A DNA stretch of 64,000 nt from an uncultured Planctomycetia bacterium (GTDB taxonomy: Bacteria; Omnitrophota; Gorgyraeia; JABMRG01): contig CAZWMG010000003.1 in NCBI GenBank assembly GCA_964634945.1, positions 37,861 through 101,860 of the forward strand. Direction: 5' to 3'. Position 1 is the first letter of the stretch. Every line of letters starts with the position of its first letter. The position numbers were made by a program, and so were the translations under genes. The notes beneath the pieces were generated by a model. That model was not told the DNA's origin and did no database searches. It saw only the letters and a program-made list of their open reading frames with translations. Shown one piece after another: positions 9,377-31,942 of the stretch.

Positions 9377-9405
9377 ATTATAGCAAAACTAGTAACAAAT
9401 GTCAA
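9377..9405 (-). promoter_or_regulatory. near-consensus sigma70-type promoter for the HTH/nonulosonic sub-operon
   Basis: On the minus strand: TTGACA (plus coordinates 9400-9405), a 17 nt spacer, then TATAAT (9377-9382), 12-30 nt upstream of the HTH start codons. A further TTGAC and TAATGAnnnnTAATGA direct repeats lie just upstream at 9406-9437. Confidence 0.5.
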
Positions 9406-9437: not shown

Positions 9438-10925
9438 TCAACTATCTAAATATGGTTTCCCATAAGGTGATTTTTTAGTTACCCTTGATAGGGCCTTTCT
9501 CAATACAAGGATAGGCCCCTGGACCTTTATACTGATTATCAGTTTATTAAGAAAATTTAAGCCGCTAACCTTTAAAAAACGCCGTTTAAGGCGTAAAAAC
9601 CTATGCTTTTGGTATAAATCTTCTCTCACCTCTGCATCCAGACTCTTTTTCAGCCCTATCAGCTCATCATTTGAAAATGCTGTAGTGCAATTTCTGACAA
9701 ATTTAAGCGCGTCACCAGCTGTGGAGAGCTCTTCCATATACTTATCCTCATCTCCAATCTTTCCCATTGACTTCATCTCTTCGTACAACTCTGTTCCCGG
9801 ATATGCTGTAGCAAAAAAGAATGGATTGCTATTATCTCTATATCTATTTATATTCTTATAGAGAGCTGCTGTCTCTTTAACAGACTCTCTATCTTCATCA
9901 GGCAGGCCCAATATCCATGTACCTCCGGGCCTGATGCCGGCCTCAACTGTCCATCGCATTGCATCTTCAACCTGTTTTGGTGTAATCTGCTTTTTAATCC
10001 TCTTAAGCATCCTTGGGCTGCCCGATTCTATGCCATAAGCGACCATTGTACAGCCGGATTTTTTAAATAATGTCAATATCTCCTTATCCACAAGATTGAC
10101 TCTGCCCGTAGCTTTCCATTGCAACTTTAACTTGGATTTAATCAATCTGTTACAAAATTCAATTGCTCTCTTACGGCTTACTAAAAATAGGTCATCATTT
10201 ACAATAAAAGATCCTATCTTATACCGGCGCTTAAGCTCCTCTAACTCCTGCATAATATTATCTACGCTACGCAGTCTGACCTTTGTATCGTATGAACAGA
10301 AAGTGCACTGATATGGGCATCCTCTTCCTGTCGTTATATTCATAGTCCTGCTTGCCTTGAATATATTATTAGGAGGAAATGGAACGCGGGAATATATACC
10401 TTTCGCGTAGAAATAGTCCCACGCCGGAAAGGGAAGAGAATCCAAATCACTTATAAATTCGCGGGTATTGGTAGTTACAAGGGTATCTCCGTCTCTGAAT
10501 ATTATCCCATTTATATTATGAAGAGGTTTATCATTTTCCAACGCGTCCAGCAGCTCAACCATTGTAACCTCTCCCTCTCCAATAACCCCGATATCGACTC
10601 CGCTGTTTCTCATTATCAGCTCCGGGGATGGAGTCACCATATTGCCTCCGCTAATAATCTTTACATCAGGCCTTACTCTTTTTATATCATCCGCGGTCAT
10701 CTTGACAAACTTATAGGCAGTAGCAATACCGCCCATAGCCACAACATCGTATTGAAGTTTGCCAAAGATTGAGATAAGTTCATCACGCGTATATTCAAAA
10801 GCATCCGCGTCAACAACCTGTATAGTATGGCCTTTTCGCAGTAGCATGGCCGCTATATAAGCAGGGCCCATTGCCATTAAATTTCTGCCATGCCTAAATG
10901 GCGGTAGAACAAATAATACTCTCAT
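9438..10925 (-). CDS. B12-binding domain radical SAM protein (class B rSAM), paralogue 1
   Basis: 495 aa. N-terminal Rossmann-like B12-binding region (MRVLFVLPP...MGPAYIAAML...IQVVDA), a CxxxCxxC cluster (GCPYQCTFCS) and the radical SAM core. Confidence 0.8.
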   Translation of the reverse strand: MRVLFVLPPFRHGRNLMAMGPAYIAAMLLRKGHTIQVVDADAFEYTRDELISIFGKLQYDVVAMGGIATAYKFVKMTADDIKRVRPDVKIISGGNMVTPSPELIMRNSGVDIGVIGEGEVTMVELLDALENDKPLHNINGIIFRDGDTLVTTNTREFISDLDSLPFPAWDYFYAKGIYSRVPFPPNNIFKASRTMNITTGRGCPYQCTFCSYDTKVRLRSVDNIMQELEELKRRYKIGSFIVNDDLFLVSRKRAIEFCNRLIKSKLKLQWKATGRVNLVDKEILTLFKKSGCTMVAYGIESGSPRMLKRIKKQITPKQVEDAMRWTVEAGIRPGGTWILGLPDEDRESVKETAALYKNINRYRDNSNPFFFATAYPGTELYEEMKSMGKIGDEDKYMEELSTAGDALKFVRNCTTAFSNDELIGLKKSLDAEVREDLYQKHRFLRLKRRFLKVSGLNFLNKLIISIKVQGPILVLRKALSRVTKKSPYGKPYLDS

Positions 10926-10949
10926 AATCTTCCTTCCTTTATATCTTAG

Positions 10950-12761
10950 CTATATTTTATATATACAGTAATTAAGCCTACGGCCTTTGCGATCTATATA
11001 GGTGTGCGCATAGATAGGTTTTTTATTGGGTGGGAGGATTTTGAATAATTTATCTTTTGAATAAAACGCATTATCAAGATATAAGATATAGTCGATATTG
11101 TATTTTTTGAGTCTATTCAAAAACTTGGGGCTATTAAGTTCTGATTCTGATATCCCATCCTCTTCTATAAGATTTTTTAAATGTATATAGGGCCTATTGA
11201 TATAATATGCCCTTATCTCATTAATCATTAATATTTTGGCATCTTTTGGAATATTATTATTTATATATTCCCCAATATCATAGGTCCTTTCCGCCTCTGA
11301 GAGGTAGGCTTGTCTTGATTTAAGCCTAAGTGGCACCATTGCTTTCTCAGCGCAATGATAGAAAAGTAGGGCAAGATTAAATAAGCAGACAGATAGTAAG
11401 AGCAGCTTAACAAAAGCGGAAAACGGGCCTTTTTCTTTCAGGGTAAACATAAGTCCGCAACCTACAAGAATAGCTAATGGCATAAGTATGGGAAATAAAA
11501 ACCTGACAACAACAGGATCCACAAAAAACCATATCACAAGATAGCTAATGGCAAACATAGCCATAGCCTTTATCTGGACTATACGGTTTTTTAGTGTTAT
11601 TGCCAATGGCAAAAATAATAGATAGGCTACTCCAAAACTCTCTCCACCATGATATTGCGGAAACATTGTAAGTGTCCATGGAAGCCTTATCAGATTAAGT
11701 AAGGAAAATTTACTCGCTATATTATTTTCAAGGCCTCTTGACCATCCATGGTAATTAAAAAACTCCGCGAAAAAAGGATAAAGCGGATTTCCCTTTATAA
11801 CAAAGGAACGAAGATACCATACAAAAGAGCATAGGCCCGTGAAAAATATAAATATCCCCAGGGCTTTGAATAATATCAGAATTCTTTGTTTTTTCTGTAT
11901 ATACAAAAGATATATCACTGCAATAATCAACGCTAACAAGGTAATTACGCCTGTATATTTTATACTTAGCACAAAACCGCAGAAAACCCCTGAAAGCGCA
12001 AGCCATCTGCTTTTCCTTCTTTCCATATATTTAAACAGGCTTAATAGAGCTAAAAAACCATAAAACGCCTGAGGTATGTCTACATACGCGTATGTTATCT
12101 GCGTAAAAATAGCAGGCGTTAAAAAGAAAATAGCCGCTGATATAATGCCTGCCTCTTTTGAGAAACGGTTCCTCACATAAAAATATACAGTAAGCAGTGA
12201 TAGGATACCGAATGAATATGCCATAAGTTTTACAAGAATATCCGAGCCTATGAGCATACAAAGCGCGAATAGACTCTCTATTAAATACGGCCATAGAGAT
12301 TCTCTTGTATATGGAAGATAGGAAAATCTTTGATTCTGAAGGAAAGTCTTCACTTGGACTAATCTATACGCGAGACTATCATTGCCTATCAGCGGCGCTA
12401 AAGTAGCTAAAAAGGTAAATAAGAGCCCTAATAACAGGGCAAGAGATAAGGCCTTAATAAAAAAGGGCATCCTTGTAAACCTAAATTCCCGCAAAGAACT
12501 TATCAGCCGCTTTAAGATATAGATTATCTTTTGGATTGAAATAAACGCAAGCAGTGAAAGAAGCGTTATGACTGATATTTTATTTAGACGGCCTGCTATC
12601 CCTAGAAAAAATACCAAGTAACCTAATATGCCCATTCCCAAGGCTGTGGAAAATACTATTCTTTCATTGGCATATGAAAACTTGAATTTAAAACTGTCCA
12701 GGCAAAACATACCAAAGCCGCAGGAAATCAGCAATATTATTAAGATATAAATTAGTTCCAT
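10950..12761 (-). CDS. polytopic membrane protein, probable GT-C-fold glycosyltransferase with a C-terminal soluble domain
   Basis: 603 aa. More than 10 predicted hydrophobic helices followed by a roughly 120 aa hydrophilic C-terminus. No DE motif. It lies between a B12-rSAM gene and a PMT/ArnT-like gene. Confidence 0.4.
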   Translation of the reverse strand: MELIYILIILLISCGFGMFCLDSFKFKFSYANERIVFSTALGMGILGYLVFFLGIAGRLNKISVITLLSLLAFISIQKIIYILKRLISSLREFRFTRMPFFIKALSLALLLGLLFTFLATLAPLIGNDSLAYRLVQVKTFLQNQRFSYLPYTRESLWPYLIESLFALCMLIGSDILVKLMAYSFGILSLLTVYFYVRNRFSKEAGIISAAIFFLTPAIFTQITYAYVDIPQAFYGFLALLSLFKYMERRKSRWLALSGVFCGFVLSIKYTGVITLLALIIAVIYLLYIQKKQRILILFKALGIFIFFTGLCSFVWYLRSFVIKGNPLYPFFAEFFNYHGWSRGLENNIASKFSLLNLIRLPWTLTMFPQYHGGESFGVAYLLFLPLAITLKNRIVQIKAMAMFAISYLVIWFFVDPVVVRFLFPILMPLAILVGCGLMFTLKEKGPFSAFVKLLLLSVCLFNLALLFYHCAEKAMVPLRLKSRQAYLSEAERTYDIGEYINNNIPKDAKILMINEIRAYYINRPYIHLKNLIEEDGISESELNSPKFLNRLKKYNIDYILYLDNAFYSKDKLFKILPPNKKPIYAHTYIDRKGRRLNYCIYKI

Positions 12762-12771
12762 ATACTCTCTA

Positions 12772-14250
12772 TTATTTTAAAGAAAATATAATATATCTTC
12801 CCTTTTTATGTTCTATGAGACCATAGTTTTCAATCATATATTCCTTAAATTCAGGACTGTTGTTAAATTCATCCATTACAGGGCATAGATAAAAATCCGC
12901 GCCCTCTCCCTTAAGCTTCTCAAGCCTCTTTATAACTTCTTTCGCAGTTGGGCCGCCTCCGCCAGTCAGGTGCAGGCTCCACCCTTTTCTGTCGCAATAA
13001 TAAAGCCCCTGAGGCCCACCCGCTGCGCTTGCTATTATCAGGTCATCTTTATTGGTAATTTCATTTACCCGCTCTCCCGCTTCCTGTAGATATCTATAAC
13101 CTTTAGGAACCACATAAGCATAAGCGGCGTATCTTAACCAAAATGGGAGTATTAAAATAATCAATAACGCCTTTGCCCATCTCTTATTCAAAAGAGTCCT
13201 GGACCAATCAAGTTTTCCCGTAAATACTATTGCCCTTGATATAAATATAGCGAATATAGGAAGCATATTAAGACTATAATATGGGTCTAAGAGATGTGTA
13301 ATAAAACCGATTGAATACACAAGAGCGCCTAAAAGCCATGCCCATATCAGATTTTCTTTGCCCCTTGTCTTAATAAAAAAACCGAAAATCAAAAACGTAA
13401 GCCCTATAGGGGTAAGCAATATGCCGGAGTATATCTCCATAAGCCTTATATAAAAATCTTTACTAAGTAATACAGACAGATCAAACCAGTTGGAGACCTG
13501 AAAATTATACGCCATATTCTGAGTATGCGCTGAATGCACAGACCTTCCGTGTAAAAGCCACAGGATTACGGGAAGAAGCGCTATGGTGAGATAGAGATAG
13601 TTTCTATAATTTAAAAGGAAGCGCCACCTTTCTTTTTTCCATATAAGAAACATAAGGGGTATAAAGATATAAAAAGACTGCGGCTTTACAAGCATTGCTA
13701 TAGAGAGAAAAACCGCGGAGTACAAAAAAAACAGGTTTTTTTTATTATCACAAAAACTAACAAGAAAATATAACGCGCCTAATGAAAAAAAGAGCATCTC
13801 AAAATCAGGCATAAATACCCTGCTAAATATTATAGATAATGGCGATAAGCCAAAAACCAATACCGCCCAGAGAGCATGGGTGCGGTCAAATATCTTTTTA
13901 GTTATAGCGTATAAAAAATACGCTGCCCCAGAAAAAAAGAATATACTAAACAGCCTTCCCACCCACTCATAGACCCCGCCTAAAAGCATATACCCCAATC
14001 CGGCAAGCGCGTTTAAAAATGGAAACTCCAGGACAAGGTATCCTGAAGTAGCCCCAAAATGGTCTACACGCGGATAAAAGATATTTATTCCATACTTAAA
14101 AAAATTACGAGCGATGGAGGCTGTCTGTACCTGGCGCATAGCGGTACCTTCAAGTATAGGCATTGTGATATTAATAAATCTTATACCGATTATCAGCGCG
14201 AAGACTGATAGCAACAGAATTTTTCTCTTATTCCAGATTATATTCATCAT
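12772..14250 (-). CDS. PMT/ArnT-like (GT39/GT83-type) GT-C membrane glycosyltransferase
   Basis: 492 aa. Multi-pass membrane N-terminal region with the first periplasmic loop motif (EGTAMRQVQTASIARNF) and a C-terminal periplasmic domain, as in the PMT_2/ArnT family. Confidence 0.5.
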   Translation of the reverse strand: MMNIIWNKRKILLLSVFALIIGIRFINITMPILEGTAMRQVQTASIARNFFKYGINIFYPRVDHFGATSGYLVLEFPFLNALAGLGYMLLGGVYEWVGRLFSIFFFSGAAYFLYAITKKIFDRTHALWAVLVFGLSPLSIIFSRVFMPDFEMLFFSLGALYFLVSFCDNKKNLFFLYSAVFLSIAMLVKPQSFYIFIPLMFLIWKKERWRFLLNYRNYLYLTIALLPVILWLLHGRSVHSAHTQNMAYNFQVSNWFDLSVLLSKDFYIRLMEIYSGILLTPIGLTFLIFGFFIKTRGKENLIWAWLLGALVYSIGFITHLLDPYYSLNMLPIFAIFISRAIVFTGKLDWSRTLLNKRWAKALLIILILPFWLRYAAYAYVVPKGYRYLQEAGERVNEITNKDDLIIASAAGGPQGLYYCDRKGWSLHLTGGGGPTAKEVIKRLEKLKGEGADFYLCPVMDEFNNSPEFKEYMIENYGLIEHKKGRYIIFSLK

Positions 14251-15656
14251 AGCCCCTTATTATTTAATATCATCTTGCATAAACTCATGGCTGTTGAAAC
14301 ATTCAGCTTCAAGCGGTTATAACTTCTTATGCGCAGCAGCTGCTTTAATATCTTGGTTGGCCTAAAATAAAATTCTCTATAGGCACGTTTCTGTATATGG
14401 AACAGGTCCTCCTGGCTTAAACCGTCAAGGTAATGAATGGGTGGAGTGTGTATCCCATAATTATCATAGTCATGACTCAATAGAAAATCATTATCAAGCA
14501 AATATTGATAAGCCTCTGTGCCTGGGTACGGTTTTAAGATATGAAATTTGGCTATATCAGGATCAAGTCTTTTGGCAAATTCTATGGTCTGCTCCGCTGT
14601 CTCACTATCTTCGCCAGGCAGGCCGAACATAAAGAATGCCCATGTCTCAAGCCCTGCCTGTTTTGCCATATTAAAGGCATCCTCTATCCTGCTTAATGCT
14701 ATTCCTTTTCTGGCCATGTCAAGAACCTTTTGACTTCCTGACTCGACACCTATAGCAATGCTATAAGTGCCCATATCCTTAAGCGATTTCAAAATTTCCT
14801 TGTTTAAAAAATCCGCTCTTAAACCATTCGGGAAAGCGAATTTAACCTTTACACCGCGCTTTCTTATCTCGTCTCTTATGCTAAATACTCTTTCTTTCTT
14901 TGTAACAAAATTGTCATCCCATATATGTATCTCTTTAATTCCGAATTCCTTTTGCAAATATTCTATCTCATCTACAACATTTTCTGCGCTACGGGCCCTA
15001 AAGGCTTTTCCAAATATTGACTGGGCGTTACAATAAGTGCACCTTCCGGGACACCCCCTACTCGTTATTATGGGGGCGGTTTTCGCGTATAAAGAATCGG
15101 GATATGTATAGGATCTGTTTTTGAATAATTTTCTCGCTGGAAGCGGAAGAGCATCTAAATCTTTTATAAGCTCCCTATCGGGATTGGTTATAATCTCATC
15201 ACCTCTTTTAAAAAGTATACCATCCACATGCTCAAGACTTTTATTGCCACTAATGGCGTTTAATAACTCTATAAACGTCTTTTCGCCTTCACCTTTTATC
15301 ACAAAATCTACATCGCGGTGCTTAAGACTCGTTTTCGGCATTACAGAAGGATACATCCCGCCGAAGATAACTTGCACATTAGGCGCTGATCTTTTAGCCG
15401 TATTCGCGGCTTCTAATGAAGAGCTTAACGTAGGCACAGTAACCGTAATGCCAACAACATCAGGGTTTTCATATTTTAACCTATCATAAAGCGTATTTTT
15501 TAAAAGATCCTCCGCATCCACATCTATAATAGAAGCATCATAGCCATTATTTTGCAATACAGCCGCTATATAAGCTAAGCCCATATGCATCTGTACCGGC
15601 GGCTTTAGTTTGCCGTATATATGCTGCTGCGAGGGGTTAATCAATATAACTTTCAT
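14247..15656 (-). CDS. B12-binding domain radical SAM protein, paralogue 2
   Basis: 469 aa. MKVILINPS...MGLAYIAAVL B12-binding N-terminus and GCPGRCTYCN radical SAM cysteine triad. It overlaps the downstream gene by 4 bp. Confidence 0.8.
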   Translation of the reverse strand: MKVILINPSQQHIYGKLKPPVQMHMGLAYIAAVLQNNGYDASIIDVDAEDLLKNTLYDRLKYENPDVVGITVTVPTLSSSLEAANTAKRSAPNVQVIFGGMYPSVMPKTSLKHRDVDFVIKGEGEKTFIELLNAISGNKSLEHVDGILFKRGDEIITNPDRELIKDLDALPLPARKLFKNRSYTYPDSLYAKTAPIITSRGCPGRCTYCNAQSIFGKAFRARSAENVVDEIEYLQKEFGIKEIHIWDDNFVTKKERVFSIRDEIRKRGVKVKFAFPNGLRADFLNKEILKSLKDMGTYSIAIGVESGSQKVLDMARKGIALSRIEDAFNMAKQAGLETWAFFMFGLPGEDSETAEQTIEFAKRLDPDIAKFHILKPYPGTEAYQYLLDNDFLLSHDYDNYGIHTPPIHYLDGLSQEDLFHIQKRAYREFYFRPTKILKQLLRIRSYNRLKLNVSTAMSLCKMILNNKGL

Positions 15657-16366
15657 CTCGTCCTATTTCTTTTGGCAAACAACGCCCAGAAATACCAATG
15701 TAAATAACTTCTAAAAACCTTGCCTAAATTAAAACTCGATACCCCGGCGACCCTATCTTTCCATACAGTCGGTATCTCTGTTATTTTAAAACCTTTCAAG
15801 AAAAGCTTTACCACTATCTCCAAAGAACAGGCAAAACCCGCTTCCTGTATCTCTATGGAATCAAGGGCTTCTTTTCTATACATCTTAAAGGCATTACTTG
15901 TATCATGGGTAGGTATACCTGTTAAAAAACAAAGGCTCAAGCCTGACCATCGCGAAAGCAGGCTCTGCAGGAATCTTCCACCAAGTTTTTTACCGTTTTT
16001 CATATATCGCGAAGCACAGACAACATCATAACCTTCTAATATCTTTTCATACATCTCATTGATGCTATGCGGGTCATCGCATGAATCCGCCATAACCGGC
16101 ACGACAATGTCCCCTTTTGCTTCTGAAAAACCTTTTTTAATAGCATTTGTAAAACCCGGTTCTGTATCATTGTCCACCAAGCGTACATTATTGAATTTTT
16201 GGAAAAGCTTCTTTGCGGCTATAGTAGTATTATCGCTGGAATGGTCATTAACAATAACAACCTCATGCACAACTGTGACAATAGACTCGATGTTAGATAT
16301 TGTTGCAGGAAGCGAAGCCTCTTCATTGTGTGCCGGTATAACTATCGTCAGTTTCATCTGTTTCAT
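15653..16366 (-). CDS. GT2 polyprenol-phosphate sugar synthase-like glycosyltransferase (Dpm1/GtrB/ArnC type)
   Basis: 237 aa. IVIPAHNEE...VIVNDHSSDNT..., the D.D catalytic region, and a length typical of single-domain GT-A Dpm1-like enzymes. Confidence 0.7.
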   Translation of the reverse strand: MKQMKLTIVIPAHNEEASLPATISNIESIVTVVHEVVIVNDHSSDNTTIAAKKLFQKFNNVRLVDNDTEPGFTNAIKKGFSEAKGDIVVPVMADSCDDPHSINEMYEKILEGYDVVCASRYMKNGKKLGGRFLQSLLSRWSGLSLCFLTGIPTHDTSNAFKMYRKEALDSIEIQEAGFACSLEIVVKLFLKGFKITEIPTVWKDRVAGVSSFNLGKVFRSYLHWYFWALFAKRNRTR

Positions 16367-16478
16367 CGATTTAAGGCCTCCGCCACTTTCACAGCTAAGT
16401 AGAGCTTACCGTAGAAAAATATAATTAAAGCTACCCAGATAAGATATAAAAATTTTAAGATAAGTTTTTTTTTCTCTA

Positions 16479-17192
16479 TTAGCATGCTAACCCTCTTTGC
16501 TTAAACAGAAGCAGGCGAAACAGATGCTGCAAATACTTAAACTGTTGGCTTATACTAAGCTTGCCCTTGCCCGCATATCTCTTGCCGAATATTATAGGTA
16601 TCTCAACTATACTTTCAGTGCCTGACTTAACAAGTAACTCAAGTCCTATCTTAAAACCTATCGGGTTTAATATGCCATAATCAGTTATCAGATCTTTACG
16701 AAACGCGAAAAAGCCGGACATCGGATCGCTTACCGTAACAAGCGGGCACGCCAAGGCCCTTGAGACAATAGCATTAATCTTTCTAAAAATTCCGAACCCT
16801 TCTATACTAGCGCCCTTAACAAATCTACTACCTATGCTAATATCGCACTCTTTATCTATTATAGGCTTTATTAATTCCGGTATCTTATCCGGAGGGTGGC
16901 TTAGATCAGCATCCATGACCACCAGCATATCTCCTGTTGACATTCTAAGTCCGTCTATTGCCGAGGCAGATAGGTCTCTCTCGGCTCTTCTTACCTTAAT
17001 ACGCACTGGAAACTTACAGGCCAATGCCGATACCGCGTCACAGATTCCGTCCTTAGAATTATCATCTACTATTACAACCTCGTATTTATAATCAGATATT
17101 AGCATCACGCGATCAATACTTTTTACGAGCAGCTCTACATTACCCGCTTCCTTGTATGTTGGTATTACTATGGATATAAACGGATTTTTCAT
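16479..17192 (-). CDS. GT2 polyprenol-phosphate sugar synthase-like glycosyltransferase (Dpm1/GtrB/ArnC type)
   Basis: 237 aa. ISIVIPTYKEAGNV...VVIVDDNSKDG...VVMDADLSHPP. Confidence 0.7.
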   Translation of the reverse strand: MKNPFISIVIPTYKEAGNVELLVKSIDRVMLISDYKYEVVIVDDNSKDGICDAVSALACKFPVRIKVRRAERDLSASAIDGLRMSTGDMLVVMDADLSHPPDKIPELIKPIIDKECDISIGSRFVKGASIEGFGIFRKINAIVSRALACPLVTVSDPMSGFFAFRKDLITDYGILNPIGFKIGLELLVKSGTESIVEIPIIFGKRYAGKGKLSISQQFKYLQHLFRLLLFKQRGLAC

Positions 17193-21063: not shown

Positions 21064-21074
21064 AATATTTCGTA

Positions 21075-22478
21075 TTAACCTTTCTGCAAAACTACCGAGA
21101 ATATTCTTTTAAACAAGAATTTGACTTGCGTCCAGGTTCTTATGCTTGATAAAAACCTAAAAAATATACTTGGCCTTAAGTAAAAAGAGAGTGTAGCTCT
21201 CTTCTGAAGGTCTTTCATCTCTTGCGAACTTATCAAACCTGCTGACCATGAAACCTTATCATAATTAAATGTATTCCAATTAAGCTCACCTAATTTGCCC
21301 TCGGTTTTTAATTTATCGTATATGGGCGTTCCTGGATATGGCTTAAATATATTAAACGAGGCATAGGTCAATGGAAGTTTTTGAGAAAACAAAATAGTCT
21401 TTTCTACATCATCCGCTGTCTCTGTCGGGTATCCTATTATGAAAAAACCCATAGTATTTATGCCTACTTCATTAATCAATCTTACTTTTTCATATACGCT
21501 CTCTAGTGTCTGCGCCTTTTTCATATCATCCAATATCCTCTGGCTTCCGGATTCTATGCCCAGGCTAAAAGAATAGCAGCCCGCTTCTTTCATCTTCTCA
21601 AGCAGCTCTCTATCCAGAGTATTCAGGCGCACCCCCTGGGGAAGTGCCCAGTGAAGCTTAAAAGGCAACTCTTTTATTTTCGAACAAACCTCTAAGACAT
21701 AATCTTTTTTCAATGTAAAATTATCATCCTCAAAATGAACTTCACTAACGCCAAAATTATCATGCAGATATATTATCTCGCTTAAAAGATTGCTAACGCT
21801 TCTGTATCGTAATTTTCTGCCTGTAACCAGCTTGCCACAGCAAAAGCTACATTCAAAAGGGCAGCCCCGCGTAGCCATAATAGGCGCTGTTGGGAAACTC
21901 TTCAACATAAAACCCTGAGGCGCCGGGGGATAATCATTAGGATCCAGCAGGTCCCACGCGGGGAAGGCTAAACTATCCAGGTCGTCACAGATACTTCTTT
22001 GATTTACAACAACAGACTCTTTATTGCGCCAGACAAGATTATCTATCCCCTCTAATGTCTCATCACTTAAGCGTCCTTGGGCGATAACCTGTACAAGCCT
22101 TGAAAGCGGTGCTTCACCTTCGCCGTAAATAACAAAATCCATCTTATCCATATAATCTAGGGTCTGTTTTGGGTTACATGAAGGATGCGGCCCGCCTGCT
22201 ATGGTTATTATCTCTTTATCGAGCCCCTTTATAAGCGCTGTAAGCTCTTTTACATTATCCAGATCTTTTGTAAATATCTTAAAACCCACTATATCAGGAC
22301 CGGTCTCTTTGATATATCTCAATAAGGCAGCATTATCCATATTCTTATTTACGCAATCAATGATATCCGTCTCATAGCCTTCTTTGCGTAACATGCTGCC
22401 GAGATAACCCAAGCCGATATCCGGTGTTATCTGATATGCCTTGCTAAAAGGTAAAACCAGCAATACTCTCATAATCAA
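21075..22478 (-). CDS. B12-binding domain radical SAM protein, paralogue 3
   Basis: 467 aa. MIMRVLLVLP...LGLGYLGSML B12-binding region and GCPFECSFCC. Confidence 0.8.
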   Translation of the reverse strand: MIMRVLLVLPFSKAYQITPDIGLGYLGSMLRKEGYETDIIDCVNKNMDNAALLRYIKETGPDIVGFKIFTKDLDNVKELTALIKGLDKEIITIAGGPHPSCNPKQTLDYMDKMDFVIYGEGEAPLSRLVQVIAQGRLSDETLEGIDNLVWRNKESVVVNQRSICDDLDSLAFPAWDLLDPNDYPPAPQGFMLKSFPTAPIMATRGCPFECSFCCGKLVTGRKLRYRSVSNLLSEIIYLHDNFGVSEVHFEDDNFTLKKDYVLEVCSKIKELPFKLHWALPQGVRLNTLDRELLEKMKEAGCYSFSLGIESGSQRILDDMKKAQTLESVYEKVRLINEVGINTMGFFIIGYPTETADDVEKTILFSQKLPLTYASFNIFKPYPGTPIYDKLKTEGKLGELNWNTFNYDKVSWSAGLISSQEMKDLQKRATLSFYLRPSIFFRFLSSIRTWTQVKFLFKRIFSVVLQKG

Positions 22479-23497
22479 TTCAGCCTTATCTCTTTAATAA
22501 AAGTTTTAATATCGCGTATATTCTTTACTGAAACGCCTAAGAATGTCTTTTGCCACAAAAAATCACACTCTGCGCACATAGCTACAGACTTGTACTCTTT
22601 ATCGCGAATCTTTTTTCGTAATGACCGCATCTTTTCAGAATTCCACGCATCCGATAATGAAATATCCTTAATATTGCCTAATGGGTATTCCTCAAAAAAA
22701 TTGACACAACATGGGACAATTGTTCCATCCCATAAAATAGTAAGCGTAAACCAAAGATAAGGACACGGAAGATACTTTACCTTCAAAAAACTGCTCTTTA
22801 CCTCTCCGCTATAAGCATAATCCGAACCCGTTATATCTTGATCTATCTTACCCCCAAAGCGGTGAGGTTTTATTATCCTAAAATCGCTGATAGGCAGGCC
22901 TTTAAATCTCATCGTAAAATCGGCTCTTTGTCTTTTATTTGACGCGCTTGCCTCAGTCTCTATCACCTGAATAAGCGTGTAGGGTTTTCTGGATCCAATC
23001 TCCTTTTTTGCATCTAAAAAACCTAATATATTTGACCGCGTCTTTTCATACTCTCCGCCTTTTCTTATTTTTTCATAAGCTGACTTTGTATAACCATCAA
23101 AAGAAAAAGATATAAAATCCAGGCCTGATCTTATAATCTCTTCAGCCTTGGCCCTGTCAAGGAGCGTAGCGTTGGTCTCAAGCCTTATTCTTAAGCCCCT
23201 TGATTTCGCGTAACGTATCATCTCAGGCAGGCCTTTATGCAATAACGACTCGCCTCGCATGAAAAGATTTATATCCATAACAGAACCGCTTGCCTGATCT
23301 ATTATATTTCTATAGGTATCTAACGACATAAAACCTACGGGCAGCCGCTCTTTCATAACCCTGTTTGGACAGATCGGGCAGCTTAGATTGCAGGAATTTG
23401 TAGGCTCGATCCATAACCGTGTAGGCATAGACTGACAATTAATATCTCTTCTTCTGTATTGCGAAAAAGTTTTGTAGATTCTGCCTATCTTAGTCAA
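22475..23497 (-). CDS. radical SAM protein with C-terminal SPASM/twitch-type auxiliary cluster domain
   Basis: 340 aa. The CNLSCPICP radical SAM triad near the N-terminus and a C-terminal Cys-rich region (CCVNFF...CAECDF). Its ATGA overlap with the upstream B12-rSAM suggests translational coupling. Confidence 0.7.
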   Translation of the reverse strand: MTKIGRIYKTFSQYRRRDINCQSMPTRLWIEPTNSCNLSCPICPNRVMKERLPVGFMSLDTYRNIIDQASGSVMDINLFMRGESLLHKGLPEMIRYAKSRGLRIRLETNATLLDRAKAEEIIRSGLDFISFSFDGYTKSAYEKIRKGGEYEKTRSNILGFLDAKKEIGSRKPYTLIQVIETEASASNKRQRADFTMRFKGLPISDFRIIKPHRFGGKIDQDITGSDYAYSGEVKSSFLKVKYLPCPYLWFTLTILWDGTIVPCCVNFFEEYPLGNIKDISLSDAWNSEKMRSLRKKIRDKEYKSVAMCAECDFLWQKTFLGVSVKNIRDIKTFIKEIRLN

Positions 23498-23504
23498 TCT
23501 CTTT

Positions 23505-25217
23505 CTATCTCCTTTTGTACAGTATCAATATGGGCCCTGATCTTTTACGTGTTAATATATTTTCACTCGCGAATCCCGCGGCGGTTGGCGAAAAAAAACT
23601 CACCTTATTCATGCCTGTCTTGTTGTCTTTGAACGGGTTAAAAACCTTGGACACTTTGTAGTGCTGATTCAGGGCATTGTAAAACTTTCCTTCAAGCTTA
23701 AATTCCGGATATGGTTTCCATGCAAAAACATAACTTATATCCTCGTTTAGCAGGCTCATCGCATCCATATCAAGGGCCGGGTAACCACTGAAAATATCCT
23801 GGCCCAGCGAGCCGGACTCATAGATGTAATAAGGCCGATATCTAGCAACATTGGTTTTCGCTAATCGCAGCATCAATTCAATCTTCTTGGCTCTCGCGGA
23901 TGATAAGGCCTCCGCGGAGTCTAAATATTCTCTCTTATCCCTAATCTGGTCGATCGTGGGCTTAAGTTGCGGAGAAAAAAAAGTATGCGTCATCGCTATT
24001 TTTTCTCCCTCAGGGACATTCTCTTCTACATATTCGCTTGCCTCTCTCCTTGTATCTGTACTGCTAAAGAGATAATCCGTATATACGCTCATTAAGAGAG
24101 GCTGCAATAAAGCAATAACAGCAATAACATAGAGCAGGGATCTTCTCTTCTTGTATATACCGCCAATGGTTGCGCATCCTACTCCGGAGAATATCGCCAA
24201 TAAGGGGATTATGGGAATTATGTAGCGCTCATGAGGTTGGCCACAATATACTATTGAAACATAATAAACAGCTAAAAATGATATTAGTATAATAGCCTTG
24301 TTTCTATACTTATAAAGAGCGAATATTGTACCTACAGCAACCAATATAACCTGGGCAAGCCCCATACCCCCTACAATAGAATGTCTCAGGTGATGATAAT
24401 AACCTGTAAAACCCACTACCGAGGCCTGTGCCCTAAATGTAGTTAAAAAACCCTTAATATCTAACAATAGAAAAGGGTTGTATAGAAAGAATATCACCAA
24501 AAACGCAGCTACACAATATGCGATCCTAATATCAAAAATTATACTCCTTAAAGAGCGTCCCTCTTCTTTTGTTTTGAGTATATGAGCGCAAAGAATCGGA
24601 ACAACCAATATAACGGCATTATACTTAAATGCCGTCGCTATCGCCGCCATGATACCCGATATTATATAATCTCTGATTCGTGCCTTATCGTAAATATTAT
24701 AAATCCAGAGAAATGACAATGATATAAAAAGCGCCATTGGTATATCATGCCACGCGTAATGGCTGTTCCTAACATGCAGAAAATTTACAGATAAAAAAAG
24801 AGCTGATAGCATCCCGACTCTTTTGGAAAAACAGCGCTTGCCTAACAGATAGGCAGGTATTATGGTAAGCGAACCCATAATAGCGCCTGTTGTTATTCTA
24901 GCTATGATATAAAAACTAGTTGGATTATTTAGAAAAAGCCTGACAAAATCCATGGTATTACTAAACATGCCCATGCATAGACCAATTATATAATAAAGCC
25001 CGAACTCTAAAAGCAGTAAATAATACAACAGAGCCGGCTTCCAAAACGCGTGCGGATTAAGATCCCCCTGCCCCATGGCCATAGCCATATTTATAGCTGT
25101 GGGTTCATCAGCATGAAAGAGATCCGGCAGTCCAAAACCTATACCCCAGACTCTGAGTACAAAACCAATCAGGATTATCGCGAAAAGCATATAAAAGCTC
25201 TGCCTGTTTTTAGTCAT
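23505..25217 (-). CDS. PMT/ArnT-like GT-C membrane glycosyltransferase (DE motif)
   Basis: 570 aa. The first loop LFHADEPT carries the DE motif. More than 10 TM helices and a C-terminal soluble domain. Confidence 0.6.
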   Translation of the reverse strand: MTKNRQSFYMLFAIILIGFVLRVWGIGFGLPDLFHADEPTAINMAMAMGQGDLNPHAFWKPALLYYLLLLEFGLYYIIGLCMGMFSNTMDFVRLFLNNPTSFYIIARITTGAIMGSLTIIPAYLLGKRCFSKRVGMLSALFLSVNFLHVRNSHYAWHDIPMALFISLSFLWIYNIYDKARIRDYIISGIMAAIATAFKYNAVILVVPILCAHILKTKEEGRSLRSIIFDIRIAYCVAAFLVIFFLYNPFLLLDIKGFLTTFRAQASVVGFTGYYHHLRHSIVGGMGLAQVILVAVGTIFALYKYRNKAIILISFLAVYYVSIVYCGQPHERYIIPIIPLLAIFSGVGCATIGGIYKKRRSLLYVIAVIALLQPLLMSVYTDYLFSSTDTRREASEYVEENVPEGEKIAMTHTFFSPQLKPTIDQIRDKREYLDSAEALSSARAKKIELMLRLAKTNVARYRPYYIYESGSLGQDIFSGYPALDMDAMSLLNEDISYVFAWKPYPEFKLEGKFYNALNQHYKVSKVFNPFKDNKTGMNKVSFFSPTAAGFASENILTRKRSGPILILYKRR

Positions 25218-26514
25218 TGTTTCCCAATATGGCTGTTATATCTTTAGCCAGTTTGATGCTGGAATTCAACCCTCTGTCCTCAGGATATATCTGTGCCATT
25301 GTAGCGAGATAGAGGCCATCTACAGGGGTATTAAACTTTGGTATGTTATTCTGATAACCAACCTCGACAATAGGCTGCGCGAAAATATCCCTGAAGAGAA
25401 ACGCACTCTTTATGCAACGCGGGTCAAAGCCCGGAAATACGCTCTGGATAGAATTCTCATAATCACTTATAAGCTCCGCACGATTTAAGCCATACTCTTT
25501 ATCTGTTTTGGATAGATAGTTTGACAGATATACAATGTGTGAGCCATCGTAATGCTTCGGGCTGATAAGCCTGGTATGTTCCAATACGCCCCCAAAAGGT
25601 ATGTTAGTATCCGCGATATTGAGCCAATAAAATTCACTTAGGCTTCTATCCAATTCAAGGATAAGGCACGCTATAGCTCTATATTCAATGCTCCGTAGGG
25701 ACGAGAGGTATTTTTCAGGCATATTATTCGCGATCTCTAAGAATTGTGGGATCGCGGTCGTCACTACCACCTTATCAAACTTAAAATTATTATCCTCAGT
25801 AAATACGCTCATGCACAGTGAATCGGAGGATCTTTCTATTTTTATTATCTCATTGCTATGATAGATCCTTGACCCATAAAAGGATATCTTATTTTCCAGC
25901 TCAGTAATCAAAGACTGAAAACTGCCATCAAGATAACCCAATTCCTCATAGCCGCATCTGCTTGTTCTTGTATTTCCACGCAGCCTTAGTCTGTAACAGA
26001 ACCATGCCGCAGACACCTTATCATGATTAGCGCCAAACTTTATTCTAAGAAGCGGCTCCCATATTATTCTGTAGGCACGTTCTCCCGCGTATTTTTTTAA
26101 CCAAACCGCTACAGGTACATCCTGTAGTTTTTTCCAGTCAGCGTATTTCTGAAGATAGAGCGTTGTTAATCCAAAACGCAACTTATCTTTTAAGCTAAGC
26201 GGCTTAAAGCTTAAAAGATCTGAAGGTATGCTAAATGGATATGTAACGCCGTTATAGTAAAGCCCCATCTGTGACCGGTTCCATGAAAGTTTTTTACTTA
26301 AACCAATCTCATCAATAAGACCCACAGCATGCTTGTCCCCAGCGAAAAGATGGTGGTAATATTTGTCGAGCCACGTATCACCAAGTTTAAAACCACCTGC
26401 CATGCCCCCTGCTTGCGGGTCTTTTCCAAAAAGCGTTACTTCGTGGCCTTGTTTGGATAAAAAATACCCGCAACAGAGACCTATTATACCCGTACCTACA
26501 ATACCTATTTTCAT
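25210..26514 (-). CDS. FAD/NAD(P)-binding oxidoreductase (amine-oxidase/PPOX-like Rossmann fold)
   Basis: 434 aa. MKIGIVGTGIIGLCCGYFL...GG is a GxGxxG dinucleotide-binding start followed by GG. The length fits the flavin amine-oxidase/protoporphyrinogen-oxidase-like family. No match to the Glf motifs I recall. Confidence 0.6.
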   Translation of the reverse strand: MKIGIVGTGIIGLCCGYFLSKQGHEVTLFGKDPQAGGMAGGFKLGDTWLDKYYHHLFAGDKHAVGLIDEIGLSKKLSWNRSQMGLYYNGVTYPFSIPSDLLSFKPLSLKDKLRFGLTTLYLQKYADWKKLQDVPVAVWLKKYAGERAYRIIWEPLLRIKFGANHDKVSAAWFCYRLRLRGNTRTSRCGYEELGYLDGSFQSLITELENKISFYGSRIYHSNEIIKIERSSDSLCMSVFTEDNNFKFDKVVVTTAIPQFLEIANNMPEKYLSSLRSIEYRAIACLILELDRSLSEFYWLNIADTNIPFGGVLEHTRLISPKHYDGSHIVYLSNYLSKTDKEYGLNRAELISDYENSIQSVFPGFDPRCIKSAFLFRDIFAQPIVEVGYQNNIPKFNTPVDGLYLATMAQIYPEDRGLNSSIKLAKDITAILGNND

Positions 26515-27224: not shown

Positions 27225-27256
27225 TATTGAAATTTCCTTTCTTATATCAGACTGCG

Positions 27257-27979
27257 TTAACTGTGCAATGCCCTGACTCTGATAATATCTAAGAACATAC
27301 GCACTGAACTGTCAAATAATTTAACTCTGCTCTGGGGTGAATTAATCCAAACAATGGGCATCTCTTTAATACTTTGCCCTTTCAAACGTGCAAGGTAAAG
27401 CATCTCTACATCAAAGGCAAAACCATCTATTCGCATCTGCGCGGCTATCTCTCGTGCCGGGATCCCCTTAAATAGCTTAAAGCCGCATTGAGTATCAATA
27501 ATACCCTTGAGAGCAAAAACCCCCACCAAGATATTAAAGATCTTACCCATATACTCTCTATAAAAAGGCTGGTGTTCTTTTATCTGCGCGCCTTTTATGC
27601 TGCGTGAACCGATAGCTATATCAAAGCCTTCATTCAATGCCGAGAATAACTTTTCCACTTCTCCGATAGGGGTAGATAAATCAGCATCACTAAAGAGCAC
27701 GTAATCCCCCTTAGACGCCATGATCCCTCTTTTTACTGAATATCCTTTTCCGCGGTTTCGTTGATTTTTTAAGATGCGCAATTTGCCTGTTTTGCTTAAG
27801 GGGGTATCCGTAGCTACTTTTATAGTACTATCAGTAGAACCATCGTCAACTAAAAATACTTCATAGGTATAGCCTCTAGAATTGCAATAAGAATGTATCT
27901 TACTTAATGCAAGCGGAAGCCTCTCCTGTTCATTAAAAGCCGGAATTATTATTGATAAATGTATATTCTTACTCATCAT
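27257..27979 (-). CDS. GT2 polyprenol-phosphate sugar synthase-like glycosyltransferase (Dpm1/GtrB/ArnC type)
   Basis: 240 aa. LSIIIPAFNEQERL...VFLVDDGSTDST...SDADLSTP. By eye about 50% identical to the plus-strand paralogue at 34903-35625. Confidence 0.7.
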   Translation of the reverse strand: MMSKNIHLSIIIPAFNEQERLPLALSKIHSYCNSRGYTYEVFLVDDGSTDSTIKVATDTPLSKTGKLRILKNQRNRGKGYSVKRGIMASKGDYVLFSDADLSTPIGEVEKLFSALNEGFDIAIGSRSIKGAQIKEHQPFYREYMGKIFNILVGVFALKGIIDTQCGFKLFKGIPAREIAAQMRIDGFAFDVEMLYLARLKGQSIKEMPIVWINSPQSRVKLFDSSVRMFLDIIRVRALHS

Positions 27980-29348
27980 TCCTAAGCAGGATTAAATCAC
28001 CAAATTTTTCAAAACTTAAAAAATCCTGTCCATATCTTTTCTGTATATCTTGCACGCTCTCTTGCCTTGTAATGAAGTAGATCGGCTTATCGGTTCCTTG
28101 AACCATGAAGGCCTTATCTTTTTTCGGTAAAAATACTGTTATATCATTAAAATAAAAGAGATCCTTATTATCAAAGCCACCGTAAAAATAGACTTGCGAA
28201 CCGTTATCATGCAATTCTTTAACGCGGATTGATGCCGCTTTTACATTAGGCGAAAAATCCAATTTAAATGCCTTGGAAAATGGTATCTGTAAACACGCGA
28301 TTATGAGGAATATAGCTATTGCCGCATAAAACAATTTTCCTTTTACAAATTTAGCGATCGCGATACCCGCGGCTAATGCCAGCGCGGGATATATCGGGAT
28401 AATATACCAATGCAGCTTAGTCTTTACCAAAGAAAAAAGCACGTAGCTTGTTACTATCCAACAAGAAAGCAGGATAGGCCCCCTCTCTCTGTATCTTATG
28501 GCCCGGAAAAAAATATAGGCTGATGATATAAACAACAATACGGACCAAGGCTTATTCTTATTAAAAATCGCTTTTTGATAAAAATTTATACCCCCGACAT
28601 GGCCTTCTATCGCCTGTGTAGCCCTGGTAAATATGTGAAAACCGAAATATTTATCTATCTCTCCTATCCCCGCTATTTTGTACTGCACGAAGTACCACAA
28701 CAGGATAAAAAACAGACTCACCGATACGCCGATTATAAAACGGCGGTTGAATATGCACCCTATTTTTTTAGTCAGTATGGAGTAGGCAAATATTACGAAT
28801 ATCCCTAAACAGGAAGCGAAACCTTTCGCGAAATAGGCAAGTCCAAAGGCAAGGCCTGAATAAAAAAGGTATTTAGCGTTATCCTCTCCCCGCAGAAAAA
28901 GATATATCATAAGCGTAATAAAAAAAGTAAGGGTTACATCTAGCATAGCCATTTTAGCGAAATGCAGATAATGCGGCAGGGCTAAAATAACAAGCGCGGA
29001 TACTAGCCCTGTCTTTTTATTTGACACATATGTACCGAATATATAGACCAACATAACGGTCAATATACCAAAGATAGATGATGTTATACGTGAGGTAAAT
29101 TCGCTGATACCGAACAATTTATAAAAGACGGCTGTAGACCACATGCAAAAAGGCGGTTTTTCAAGAAAAGGCTCTCCACCTAAGGTAAGTGTATGCCACA
29201 CATTATTCTGAGCCATCTCCTTTGCGGGGATCATATAAGCGCATTCATCCCAAGTTGTCAGGCTTCCTGAACCGATATTAAACAGGATGTATGCTGTGGC
29301 AAAGACCAACAAAACTAAGAATAGCCTATCTTTAAAGATTGAATTCAT
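27969..29348 (-). CDS. PMT/ArnT-like GT-C membrane glycosyltransferase (DE motif)
   Basis: 459 aa. TWDECAYMIPAKEM (the classic GT39/GT83 first-loop DE motif), about 11 TM helices and a short C-terminal soluble domain. Confidence 0.65.
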   Translation of the reverse strand: MNSIFKDRLFLVLLVFATAYILFNIGSGSLTTWDECAYMIPAKEMAQNNVWHTLTLGGEPFLEKPPFCMWSTAVFYKLFGISEFTSRITSSIFGILTVMLVYIFGTYVSNKKTGLVSALVILALPHYLHFAKMAMLDVTLTFFITLMIYLFLRGEDNAKYLFYSGLAFGLAYFAKGFASCLGIFVIFAYSILTKKIGCIFNRRFIIGVSVSLFFILLWYFVQYKIAGIGEIDKYFGFHIFTRATQAIEGHVGGINFYQKAIFNKNKPWSVLLFISSAYIFFRAIRYRERGPILLSCWIVTSYVLFSLVKTKLHWYIIPIYPALALAAGIAIAKFVKGKLFYAAIAIFLIIACLQIPFSKAFKLDFSPNVKAASIRVKELHDNGSQVYFYGGFDNKDLFYFNDITVFLPKKDKAFMVQGTDKPIYFITRQESVQDIQKRYGQDFLSFEKFGDLILLRNDE

Positions 29349-31885: not shown

Positions 31886-31942
31886 AAGCTTTAAAGGTTA
31901 AAAGGTTGTATACTAAACTTCTCCCTTTGCTTTTTACTTTAT

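Follow-up and report, generated by a model that had tools for sequence, protein, structure and literature searches.

Results

The subject of this work is a 64,000-nucleotide stretch of DNA, hereafter the window, from an uncultured Planctomycetia bacterium (GTDB lineage Bacteria; Omnitrophota; Gorgyraeia; JABMRG01; GenBank assembly GCA_964634945.1, contig CAZWMG010000003.1, positions 37,861 to 101,860 of the forward strand), and in particular a block of 15 tightly packed genes that runs from position 29348 to position 9438, all on the minus strand. The block interleaves genes for family 2 glycosyltransferases (GT2), for polytopic glycosyltransferases of the GT-C class and for radical S-adenosylmethionine enzymes (rSAMs), three of which carry a B12-binding domain (B12-rSAMs). 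In gene order, with the number of predicted transmembrane (TM) helices where this is relevant, the block reads as follows:

27969..29348, minus strand: GT-C, PMT_2/ArnT-like, 459 aa, about 8 TM helices, WDE motif; PMT_2 2.8e-17; first gene of the block
27257..27979, minus strand: Dpm1/DPMS-like GT2, 240 aa; Glycos_transf_2 3e-27; 11-bp overlap with GT-C 27969; no TM helix
26511..27224, minus strand: Dpm1-like GT2, 237 aa; Pfam Glycos_transf_2 1.3e-30
25210..26514, minus strand: flavin adenine dinucleotide (FAD) oxidoreductase of the amine-oxidase family; Amino_oxidase 6e-23, NAD_binding_8
23505..25217, minus strand: GT-C, PMT_2-like, 570 aa, first-loop ADE; Pfam PMT_2 6.6e-17
22475..23497, minus strand: rSAM with SPASM domain; Pfam SPASM 1.6e-17, Radical_SAM 1e-16; 4-bp overlap with rSAM gene 21075
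21075..22478, minus strand: B12-rSAM 'c', 467 aa; Pfam B12-binding 7e-24, Radical_SAM 1.3e-24
18835..21063, minus strand: YfhO-like polytopic protein, 742 aa, about 11 TM helices; Pfam YfhO 2e-13
17189..18838, minus strand: GT-C, PMT_2-like, 549 aa, first-loop CDE; Pfam PMT_2 4e-12
16479..17192, minus strand: Dpm1-like GT2, 237 aa; Glycos_transf_2 3.5e-26; 4-bp overlap with GT-C 17189
15653..16366, minus strand: Dpm1/DPMS-like GT2, 237 aa; first gene of the triad described below
14247..15656, minus strand: B12-rSAM 'b', 469 aa; Pfam B12-binding 1.2e-21, Radical_SAM 1e-25
12772..14250, minus strand: GT-C, PMT_2-like, 492 aa, about 8 TM helices; PMT_2 2.5e-16; third gene of the triad
10950..12761, minus strand: GT-C, PMT/PMT_2-like, 603 aa, about 11 TM helices; PMT 3.4e-12, PMT_2 1.5e-11
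9438..10925, minus strand: B12-rSAM 'a', 495 aa; Pfam B12-binding and Radical_SAM; last gene of the block

From 29348 down to 9438, the junctions between these genes measure -11, 32, -4, -8, 7, -4, 11, -4, -4, 112, -4, -4, 10 and 24 bp, and the gaps that flank the block amount to 222 bp and 356 bp. Directly downstream, just past the last gene, lies a perfect promoter match:

9377..9405, minus strand: sigma-70-type promoter, TTGACA-17-TATAAT with TG

Given these junctions, the flanking gaps and the promoter match, the block looks like one operon. An open reading frame (ORF) check recovered, on the minus strand, every ORF that a first-pass annotation of the window had named at its position, and Pfam agreed with that annotation on the three B12-rSAMs and a fourth one at 62203, on the SPASM rSAM and on the FAD oxidoreductase. 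The paralogues of the window are old rather than recent duplicates: its rSAMs share 27-32% identity (BLASTP) and its GT2s 24-41%, and the GT-C paralogues can barely be aligned to one another.

The four GT2s of the block proved to be single-domain proteins of 237-240 aa with Glycos_transf_2 as their only Pfam domain, and their best solved relatives, Pyrococcus DPMS, ArnC and GtrB, bear out their earlier description as Dpm1/GtrB-like. The top PDB matches of the 27257 protein were DPMS (5mlz, 1.1e-24), ArnC and GtrB, while that of the 15653 protein was again Pyrococcus DPMS (5mlz, 1.4e-26, residues 2-224), with GtrB and ArnC also matched. A fifth protein of this kind is encoded outside the block and is 41% identical to the 27257 protein (E 1e-62, BLASTP):

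34903..35625, plus strand: fifth Dpm1-like GT2, 240 aa; Glycos_transf_2 1.7e-31

DAD/ADS motifs of the DxD type are visible in the window GT2s, whose closest likeness is to DPMS, GtrB and ArnC and not to polymerising or Leloir-type GT2s. No named equivalog (ArnC, PgfS, AglJ, PpgS or Dol-P-hexose transferase) was reached, scores being 50-80 bits against cut-offs of 325-529; the nearest NCBIfam families, all below cut-off, were ArnC for 27257, ArnC, AglJ, Dol-P-hexose transferase and PpgS for 26511, and PgfS, ArnC and AglJ for 16479. None of the five GT2s has a predicted TM segment, and the C-terminal TM helices that distinguish GtrB, ArnC and the archaeal DPMS subtype were not seen, so that the proteins resemble the TM-less Dpm1/PpgS subtype. 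By family they are of the polyprenyl-phosphate sugar synthase type, and this is the activity predicted for them. An ORF scan added one small candidate partner:

16363..16485, minus strand: 40-codon ORF with one predicted TM helix

This ORF overlaps the stop of one GT2 gene (16479) and the start of the next (15653), and gene calls in four independent assemblies of the same organism include it as a 40-residue protein. Its product might anchor the TM-less GT2s to the membrane in a DPM2/DPM3-like way.

Of the six polytopic proteins that had been annotated as GT-Cs, five matched PMT_2 or PMT (45-64 bits against a cut-off of 26; 8-11 predicted TM helices), among them the 10950 protein, which had been left unclassified and turned out to be PMT-like (E about 1e-11 to 1e-12). 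ArnT (5ezm) matched the 27969 protein at 7.4e-24 over residues 16-352. For the sixth, 18835, the YfhO match covers only the C-terminal 80 residues (659-738; profile positions 747-827 of 835; 50 bits against a cut-off of 28.5), and no PDB sequence was matched; its orthologues (244-830 bits) are found in the same kind of locus elsewhere (L006, L009, L026, L058, L060 and L070; L numbers denote the loci collected here). The first-loop DE motif was present as annotated in 17189 (CDE), 23505 (ADE) and 27969 (WDE). It is absent, likewise as annotated, from the PMT/ArnT-like 12772, whose family shows an invariant P-x-L-E...RQxQTA in the first loop instead of DE (alignment A3). A profile of this alignment matched none of the PDB sequences.

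The FAD oxidoreductase gene 25210 stands between a GT2 and a GT-C gene, with overlaps of 4 and 8 bp, and its product scored 475 bits against NCBIfam NF005560 (PRK07233, 'hypothetical protein'), above the cut-off of 252 bits. A trio of Amino_oxidase, GT2 and 10-TM protein genes in the Omnitrophica locus L137 parallels the GT2/FAD/GT-C order of the window, and we regard the oxidoreductase as a candidate tailoring enzyme.

The fourth B12-rSAM of the window and a second SPASM enzyme are encoded outside the block:

62203..63705, minus strand: B12-rSAM 'd', 500 aa; Pfam
38188-39312, minus strand: second SPASM rSAM; adjoins a Wzy_C protein

All four B12-rSAMs scored above the gathering score for PF04055 and reached 63-84 bits for PF02310 (cut-off 32), and the CxxxCxxC cysteines of the 14247 protein (C202/C206/C209) are invariant in 21 orthologues. 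Comparison with NCBIfam families including BchE, HpnJ, HpnR, PhpK, Sden_1168, ApyD, MCR Gln methylase, BzaD, KedN5, AprD4, TsrM and others revealed that none of the four reaches a curated cut-off (best scores 181-228 bits against cut-offs of 481-750), in line with the earlier view that they are not housekeeping enzymes. The best scores of 14247 were those for HpnJ (228 of 578 bits) and BchE (214 of 481), those of two other window rSAMs were for Sden_1168 or BchE (about 190 bits), all below cut-off, and the SPASM rSAM 22475 reached no NCBIfam family at its cut-off. In some source records these families carry the names 'anaerobic magnesium-protoporphyrin IX monomethyl ester cyclase' (BchE) or 'YgiQ (UPF0313)'; such names are unsupported by the NCBIfam scores and, for several families, conflict with the genomic context.

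An AlphaFold2 model of 14247 (pLDDT 90.4) gave AprD4 as its best fold match (TM-score 0.76, E 6e-27, about 22% sequence identity), with an NCBIfam AprD4 score of 103 bits against a cut-off of 500. The next matches, over both domains, were the methylases MgmA, TsrM, CysS and TokK, and also OxsB. With AprD4 and OxsB on one side and MgmA, TsrM, TokK and CysS on the other all near, neither sequence nor fold can decide between a methylase and a non-methylase.

The first-pass annotation had read the block as three equivalent modules, each headed by a B12-rSAM. This scheme is too simple, as the contexts of 'a', 'b' and 'c' differ, and the notion that rSAM genes head sub-blocks was abandoned in view of the gene order in other genomes; the rSAM genes lie between or after the GT2 and GT-C genes. 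The 'a' family is small and mostly confined to Omnitrophota; it stands beside PMT_2 and GT2 genes in L141 and together with SPASM and PMT_2 genes in L142. The 'c' rSAM shares 63% identity with a protein from Omnitrophica RIFCSPLOWO2_12_FULL_44_17, its orthologues occur in GT2/rSAM/PMT_2 triads in the Zambryskibacteria locus L138 and in L085, and in L137 it lies near the Amino_oxidase trio, a methyltransferase and a DUF2079 protein. L138 additionally encodes two more B12-rSAMs, more PMT_2 proteins, a 63-aa ferredoxin and a GtrA_DPMS_TM protein. The 'd' rSAM belongs to a legionaminic/nonulosonic-acid-type module, where its neighbours are Epimerase_2 (NeuC-like), CBS-NTP_transferase (PtmE-like) and CTP_transf_3 (CMP-transferase-like) genes. 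Radical SAM tailoring of nonulosonic acids may be a separate theme; in L137, too, a SPASM and B12-rSAM pair lies directly before NeuB and a cytidylyltransferase.

The conserved unit of the block consists of GT2 15653, B12-rSAM 14247 and GT-C 12772, whose stop and start codons overlap, the 'b' rSAM gene in the middle sharing 4 bp with each neighbour. A forward test, in which one genome per species was scanned for orthologues of rSAM 14247, returned 48 loci with 39-60% identity from bacteria (Omnitrophota, Planctomycetia, Lentisphaerae/Victivallales, Elusimicrobia, Patescibacteria, Desulfuromonadaceae, Nitrospirae) and archaea (Woesearchaeota, Pacearchaeota, Methanospirillum). A polytopic protein (at least 400 aa and at least 7 TM helices) is encoded within two genes of the rSAM in 29 of the 46 usable loci, a small GT2 in 25 of 46, and both in 19 of 46. 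Both partner classes are enriched beyond chance: polytopic proteins of at least 400 aa account for 24% of the genes within two positions of the rSAM as opposed to 6% of those at least five genes away (odds ratio 4.8, p=4e-8), and small GT2s for 16% near and 4% far (odds ratio 4.3, p=2e-5; 46 orthologous loci), in loci that were chosen through one gene and with statistics that ignore phylogeny. The GT-C neighbours were found by counting TM helices and by Pfam scan, phmmer with the window GT-Cs being too insensitive (it missed the PMT_2 protein of L007); 21 of 41 neighbouring membrane proteins match PMT_2, and single others YfhO, GT87, GT22, DUF2079 or EpsG.

The association is specific for particular paralogues. 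Of the five GT2s of the window, 15653 is the one most similar to the neighbouring GT2 in about 20 other loci, and the neighbouring GT-C, where detectable, best matches 12772. A 12772-type GT-C directly follows the rSAM in L006, L009, L026, L028, L050, L053, L054 and L077, and orthologues of 10950 follow the 12772-type GT-C in L009, L054, L057, L058 and L062-L066. The expectation that B12-rSAM, Dpm1-like GT2 and DE-motif GT-C travel together was therefore borne out for the three classes, which co-occur in many phyla, although not for the motif: the partner of the best-conserved rSAM is the LE-motif 12772 family, and the DE-motif GT-Cs were ruled out in this role.

GT2, rSAM and membrane protein genes are collinear in twelve loci, where most of them overlap or almost touch; this order is seen in Omnitrophota, Planctomycetia and Patescibacteria, and a looser association reaches Lentisphaerae, Elusimicrobia, DPANN archaea and Methanospirillum. 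Some loci bring together two to five B12-rSAMs with several GT2 and GT-C genes; they come from Patescibacteria (L006, L138), Planctomycetia (L026, L050, L054), Omnitrophota (L009, L053, L137) and DPANN archaea (L051, L139). L009 partly keeps the order of the window (YfhO, 17189-type GT-C, 15653-type GT2, rSAM 'b', 12772-type and 10950-type GT-Cs) and differs from it in some genes between the shared ones. SPASM rSAMs recur beside B12-rSAMs in L006, L009, L137, L139 and L142. At about 38% identity, the 95 distinct B12-rSAMs of the collected loci form 32 clusters, and 62 of the 95 have a GT2 or polytopic protein within two genes; the sample is biased, since a single rSAM or GT-C served to select the loci.

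Some archaeal loci are arranged differently. In the DPANN loci L038, L042, L055 and L056, genes for proteins of about 300 aa with 6 TM helices, about 510 aa with 6 TM helices and about 150 aa with 3-4 TM helices precede the B12-rSAM gene; on the opposite strand are genes for a 240-aa GT2 and a protein of about 450 aa with 8-10 TM helices (three of the four loci), then one for a protein of about 510 aa with 13 TM helices. The protein of about 150 aa could be a GtrA-like flippase. The Aenigmatarchaeota locus L139 (705-12997) encodes five B12-rSAMs, a SPASM rSAM, a PMT_2 protein, a UbiA prenyltransferase and an amine-oxidase FAD protein; its combination of UbiA, FAD oxidoreductase and GT-C recalls the mycobacterial decaprenylphosphoryl arabinose (DPA) pathway.

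The reverse test, in which metagenomes were scanned with a profile of the 12772-type GT-C, yielded 69 non-redundant homologues, 43 of which have neighbours on both sides. Among these 43, a GT2 is encoded within three genes in 58% and a B12-rSAM within three genes in 26%. In the closest flanked relative (L058, 58% identical), a 15653-type GT2 gene leads directly to the 12772-type and 10950-type GT-C genes with no rSAM gene between. Because the nearest GT2/GT-C relatives lack the rSAM gene, this comparison shows the rSAM to be an optional insert in a pre-existing GT2/GT-C pair.

Gene fusions support a role of the rSAMs in glycan synthesis. Directly behind a 12772-type GT-C gene, marine metagenomes encode proteins of about 1240 aa that combine B12-binding and Radical_SAM domains with two GT4 (GT-B) modules; further fusions join a GT4 or a methyltransferase:

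L107 2423-6163, L114 1648-5370 and L119 2070-5783: B12-rSAM-GT4-GT4 fusions
L098 2296-4714: B12-rSAM with a single GT4; the ORF reaches the contig end and may be a shortened copy of the longer form
L062 8316-9842 and L085 2884-4434: N-terminal class I methyltransferase fused to a 15653-type GT2, 508-516 aa

In the Methanospirillum locus L037 (3402-5138), the GT2 is part of a 578-aa ORF with about seven predicted TM helices.

The remainder of the window likewise serves glycan synthesis, with genes for NeuB, three cytidylyltransferases, DegT, a carbamoyltransferase and an adenosine 5'-phosphosulfate (APS) kinase (Pfam), as well as a WecA-like GT4, a PglF-like dehydratase, two Wzy_C proteins, RmlD and more GT2 and GT4 proteins. 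The WecA-like, PglF-like and two Wzy_C proteins suggest an undecaprenyl-diphosphate (Und-PP)-linked polymer. The unit after the promoter is a nonulosonic-acid module comprising HTH_17, DegT, NeuB and the following genes, and it opens with:

9107-9364, minus strand: HTH_17-type (excisionase-type) ORF, 85 aa

This ORF sits between the GT-C block and the DegT/NeuB module and may encode a locus-specific regulator; the Omnitrophica locus L137 also has an HTH_17 gene (15076-15315, 79 aa), which stands in front of a HAD-type gene at the second position upstream of DegT. Within the same module, between a short-chain dehydrogenase/reductase gene and DegT, is a gene for an MbnB/TglH/ChrH-like protein (7118-7909, minus strand; DUF692, xylose-isomerase-like TIM barrel), a family usually discussed as modifying ribosomally synthesized and post-translationally modified peptides (RiPPs), whereas the context here is sugar biosynthesis.

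Upstream of the block, at 31694-34772 on the minus strand, a gene for a 609-aa carbamoyltransferase is followed by genes for a protein of 144 aa with three TM helices and a peptide of 52 aa with one, the APS kinase gene being just upstream, which suggests carbamoylated, perhaps sulfated sugars in the same glycan. The carbamoyltransferase-linked protein of 144 aa (31943-32377) was considered as a flippase and not adopted, as it is without a Pfam match and lies outside the operon. The sole plus-strand island of the window (34903-38179) breaks the otherwise single-strand locus and carries the fifth GT2 together with an AAA_14/DUF4143 ATPase and a 437-aa protein without a Pfam match.

Discussion

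The 20-kb block is best explained as a set of about five to six extracytoplasmic glycosylation cassettes within a 64-kb surface-glycan locus. In the scheme we propose, a soluble Dpm1/DPMS-like GT2 would move a monosaccharide from a nucleotide sugar to polyprenyl phosphate on the inner side of the membrane. Some cassettes would add a tailoring step at this point, in which a cytoplasmic B12-rSAM, SPASM rSAM or FAD oxidoreductase or, elsewhere, a methyltransferase would alter the sugar while it still faces the cytoplasm. A transporter encoded outside the block would next flip the lipid-linked sugar, and a GT-C, assigned to its family by profile matches and presumably active as such, would move it to an acceptor on the outer face. 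The likeliest acceptor would be a surface protein or the Wzy-type polymer for which other parts of the window code. The rSAM step must come before flipping, as an Fe-S enzyme of the cytoplasm cannot act once the sugar has been transferred in the periplasm. That the rSAM tailors the sugar of its cassette, at the lipid or at the cassette level, prior to extracytoplasmic transfer is a proposal for which we see about as much reason to accept as to doubt. The rSAM would then serve as an optional plug-in that diversifies the donor sugar, in a role like that of ArnD, DprE1/DprE2 or auxiliary epimerases.

The Gtr (GtrA/GtrB/GtrC), CsbB/GtcA/YfhO, GacI/GacL and pentofuranose systems likewise combine a lipid-linked monosaccharide synthase with a GT-C, and in the pentofuranose system an optional auxiliary epimerase, placed between synthesis of the lipid-linked sugar and GT-C transfer, changes the identity of that sugar in a similar manner (Kelly et al. 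2024, PMC11127046). In contrast to such three-component systems, the auxiliary enzyme here is a B12-domain or SPASM rSAM or an FAD oxidoreductase, no flippase gene is present in the block, and five to six cassettes appear to be chained in one operon. In the Arn pathway (ArnC, ArnD, ArnE/F, ArnT) and the mycobacterial DPA pathway (UbiA, DprE1/DprE2, Emb/Aft), the sugar is modified on polyprenyl phosphate before the GT-C step. The best solved relatives of the window GT2s and GT-Cs include ArnC and ArnT, without the ArnC equivalog threshold being reached, and the arrangement of several GT-Cs resembles that of mycobacterial arabinan and mannan assembly. Tailoring by ArnD is hydrolytic and that by DprE1/2 is FAD/NADH redox chemistry, whereas the candidate in the window is an rSAM.

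Related, too, are HpnI/HpnK/HpnJ (hopanoid cyclitol ether), where HpnI is a GT2, and the calditol synthase Cds. In these systems a glycosyltransferase is followed by a B12-type rSAM that rearranges a lipid-linked sugar (PMC13459092). HpnJ is the nearest NCBIfam neighbour of 14247, with a score under half of its cut-off, and the window offers no hopanoid or tetraether context; because a GT-C follows the rSAM here, the sugar would stay a transferable donor, unlike in HpnJ and Cds. AprD4 (a 1,2-diol dehydratase) and the C-methyltransferases GenK and GenD1 are likewise rSAMs with a B12 domain that act on unactivated sugar carbons, GenK methylating C-6' (PMC4039129). The substrates of these aminoglycoside enzymes are soluble pseudo-oligosaccharides of secondary metabolism, whereas the context in the window is one of cell-surface glycan donors. 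For the chemistry, two candidates stand foremost, C-methylation and deoxygenation (1,2-diol dehydration), and methylation, deoxygenation, epimerisation or oxidation fit a downstream GT-C better than ring contraction, because the latter would destroy the glycosyl donor.

In its most specific form, the proposal is that the B12-rSAMs act at the membrane surface directly on polyprenyl-phosphate monosaccharides, so that C-methylated, deoxygenated or rearranged donors would exist only in lipid-linked form and would then be installed outside by a GT-C; we consider this possible, if somewhat doubtful. If true, it would be a hitherto unrecognised and very widespread route to rare surface sugars in the candidate phyla radiation (CPR), DPANN, Omnitrophota and the Planctomycetes-Verrucomicrobia-Chlamydiae (PVC) group, for which at least 30 distinct rSAM sub-families would have been recruited. 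Several observations weigh against rSAM tailoring at the lipid or cassette level. No ORF for a GtrA, GtcA, Wzx, MATE or SMR-type flippase was found within 9438-29348, the SPASM/rSAM-'c'/YfhO group of the window has no GT2 of its own, and about one third of the 14247 orthologues (e.g. L008, L010, L011) have no GT2 or polytopic partner within two genes; the selection of loci through one gene also tempers the co-occurrence counts. Gene order, moreover, fits a lipid-linked sugar and a nucleotide sugar feeding the GT2 alike, and the rSAM-GT4 fusions point equally to nucleotide-sugar or Und-PP-glycan substrates. AprD4, finally, possesses a B12-like domain yet does not bind cobalamin, and its substrate is soluble; because it is the nearest fold, cobalamin use by the window rSAMs is itself a prediction. 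Tailoring of soluble precursors such as NDP-hexoses or CMP-nonulosonic acids in the cytoplasm, ahead of any lipid-linked step and with GT2 and GT-C simply handling the resulting unusual sugar, is the leading alternative, though on balance we think it unlikely; the rSAM would then belong to a nucleotide-sugar pathway. Besides the soluble substrate of AprD4 and the fusion of rSAMs to Leloir-type GT4 domains, it can draw on the occurrence of the 'a' family in L140 within a nonulosonic-acid cluster that lacks any GT-C, a further point against lipid-level tailoring, on the NeuC-like, PtmE-like and CMP-transferase-like neighbours of 'd', and on the rSAM pair before NeuB in L137. The position of the b-type rSAM between GT2 and GT-C, with overlapping codons, in pathway order and in many phyla, speaks for a lipid-linked substrate instead, as does the frequent lack of adjoining nucleotide-sugar genes beside the triads (e.g. 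L028), although neither is decisive.

Other explanations account for less of what was observed. An HpnJ/Cds-like ring contraction would yield a cyclitol head group, the cassettes making unusual glycolipids rather than glycan side chains. It is recommended by HpnJ being the top sub-threshold match of 14247, at 228 bits over nearly the full length, and by the action of HpnJ after HpnI on lipid-linked glucosamine, with a similar role of Cds in archaea (PMC13459092); we nevertheless judge it improbable, since 228 bits falls well short of the 578 required for HpnJ, neither an HpnK-type deacetylase gene nor a hopanoid gene lies nearby, and a carbocycle on polyprenyl phosphate would, on chemical grounds, no longer serve as a glycosyl donor, which makes a coupled downstream GT-C hard to explain. 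It is quite improbable, too, that the rSAMs have a target other than the sugar, be it a membrane lipid, the polyprenol carrier or, in a RiPP-like manner, an acceptor that is a peptide or protein: their sub-threshold similarity to the RiPP enzyme ApyD, to the lipid B12-rSAM family TIGR04072 and to HpnR would agree with this, as would the MbnB/TglH-like protein at 7118-7909, but no precursor-peptide or lipid-synthesis genes accompany the cassettes, the rSAMs are cytoplasmic while GT-C acceptors are extracytoplasmic, and the fusions are to glycosyltransferases and not to peptide- or lipid-handling domains. That the genes share a large glycan island with unrelated tailoring genes and no functional meaning attaches to their co-localisation might be argued from a 64-kb window filled with glycan genes and from the third of rSAM orthologues that lack these partners. 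Paralogue-specific, collinear and translationally coupled triads recurring across bacterial and archaeal phyla, the enrichment of partners near the rSAM over distant positions and the gene fusions leave very little probability for such a coincidence.

Regarding novelty, the first-pass annotation had put the whole arrangement forward as a candidate undescribed system. No description of rSAMs in GT2/GT-C cassettes was found in the literature, including 2026 reviews on B12-rSAMs and lipid-modifying rSAMs, within a coverage that is incomplete, and to this extent the claim stands. It does not hold for multiplied pairs and tailoring between the two steps, which are already known: lipid-linked sugars are tailored by ArnD and DprE1/2, and Streptococcus mutans has two Scc pairs. 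Earlier systems thus already show the two-step logic, pairs in several copies and auxiliary enzymes that tailor the sugar; what appears to be new is an rSAM in the tailoring role and its wide occurrence in CPR, DPANN, Omnitrophota and PVC lineages.

As a practical consequence for annotation, a B12-rSAM flanked by a GT2 of about 240 aa and a PMT_2 protein should be read as a glycan-tailoring enzyme and not as BchE or 'YgiQ'. The cassette is common in lineages with the least-understood envelopes, namely CPR, DPANN, Omnitrophota, Planctomycetes and Lentisphaerae. If its enzymes tailor lipid-linked sugars, the cassette would provide a compact three-gene unit that is testable in E. coli and reusable for glycoengineering, it would assign functions to dozens of unannotated class-B radical SAM sub-families, and new sugar structures would be predicted on the surfaces of uncultivated microbes.

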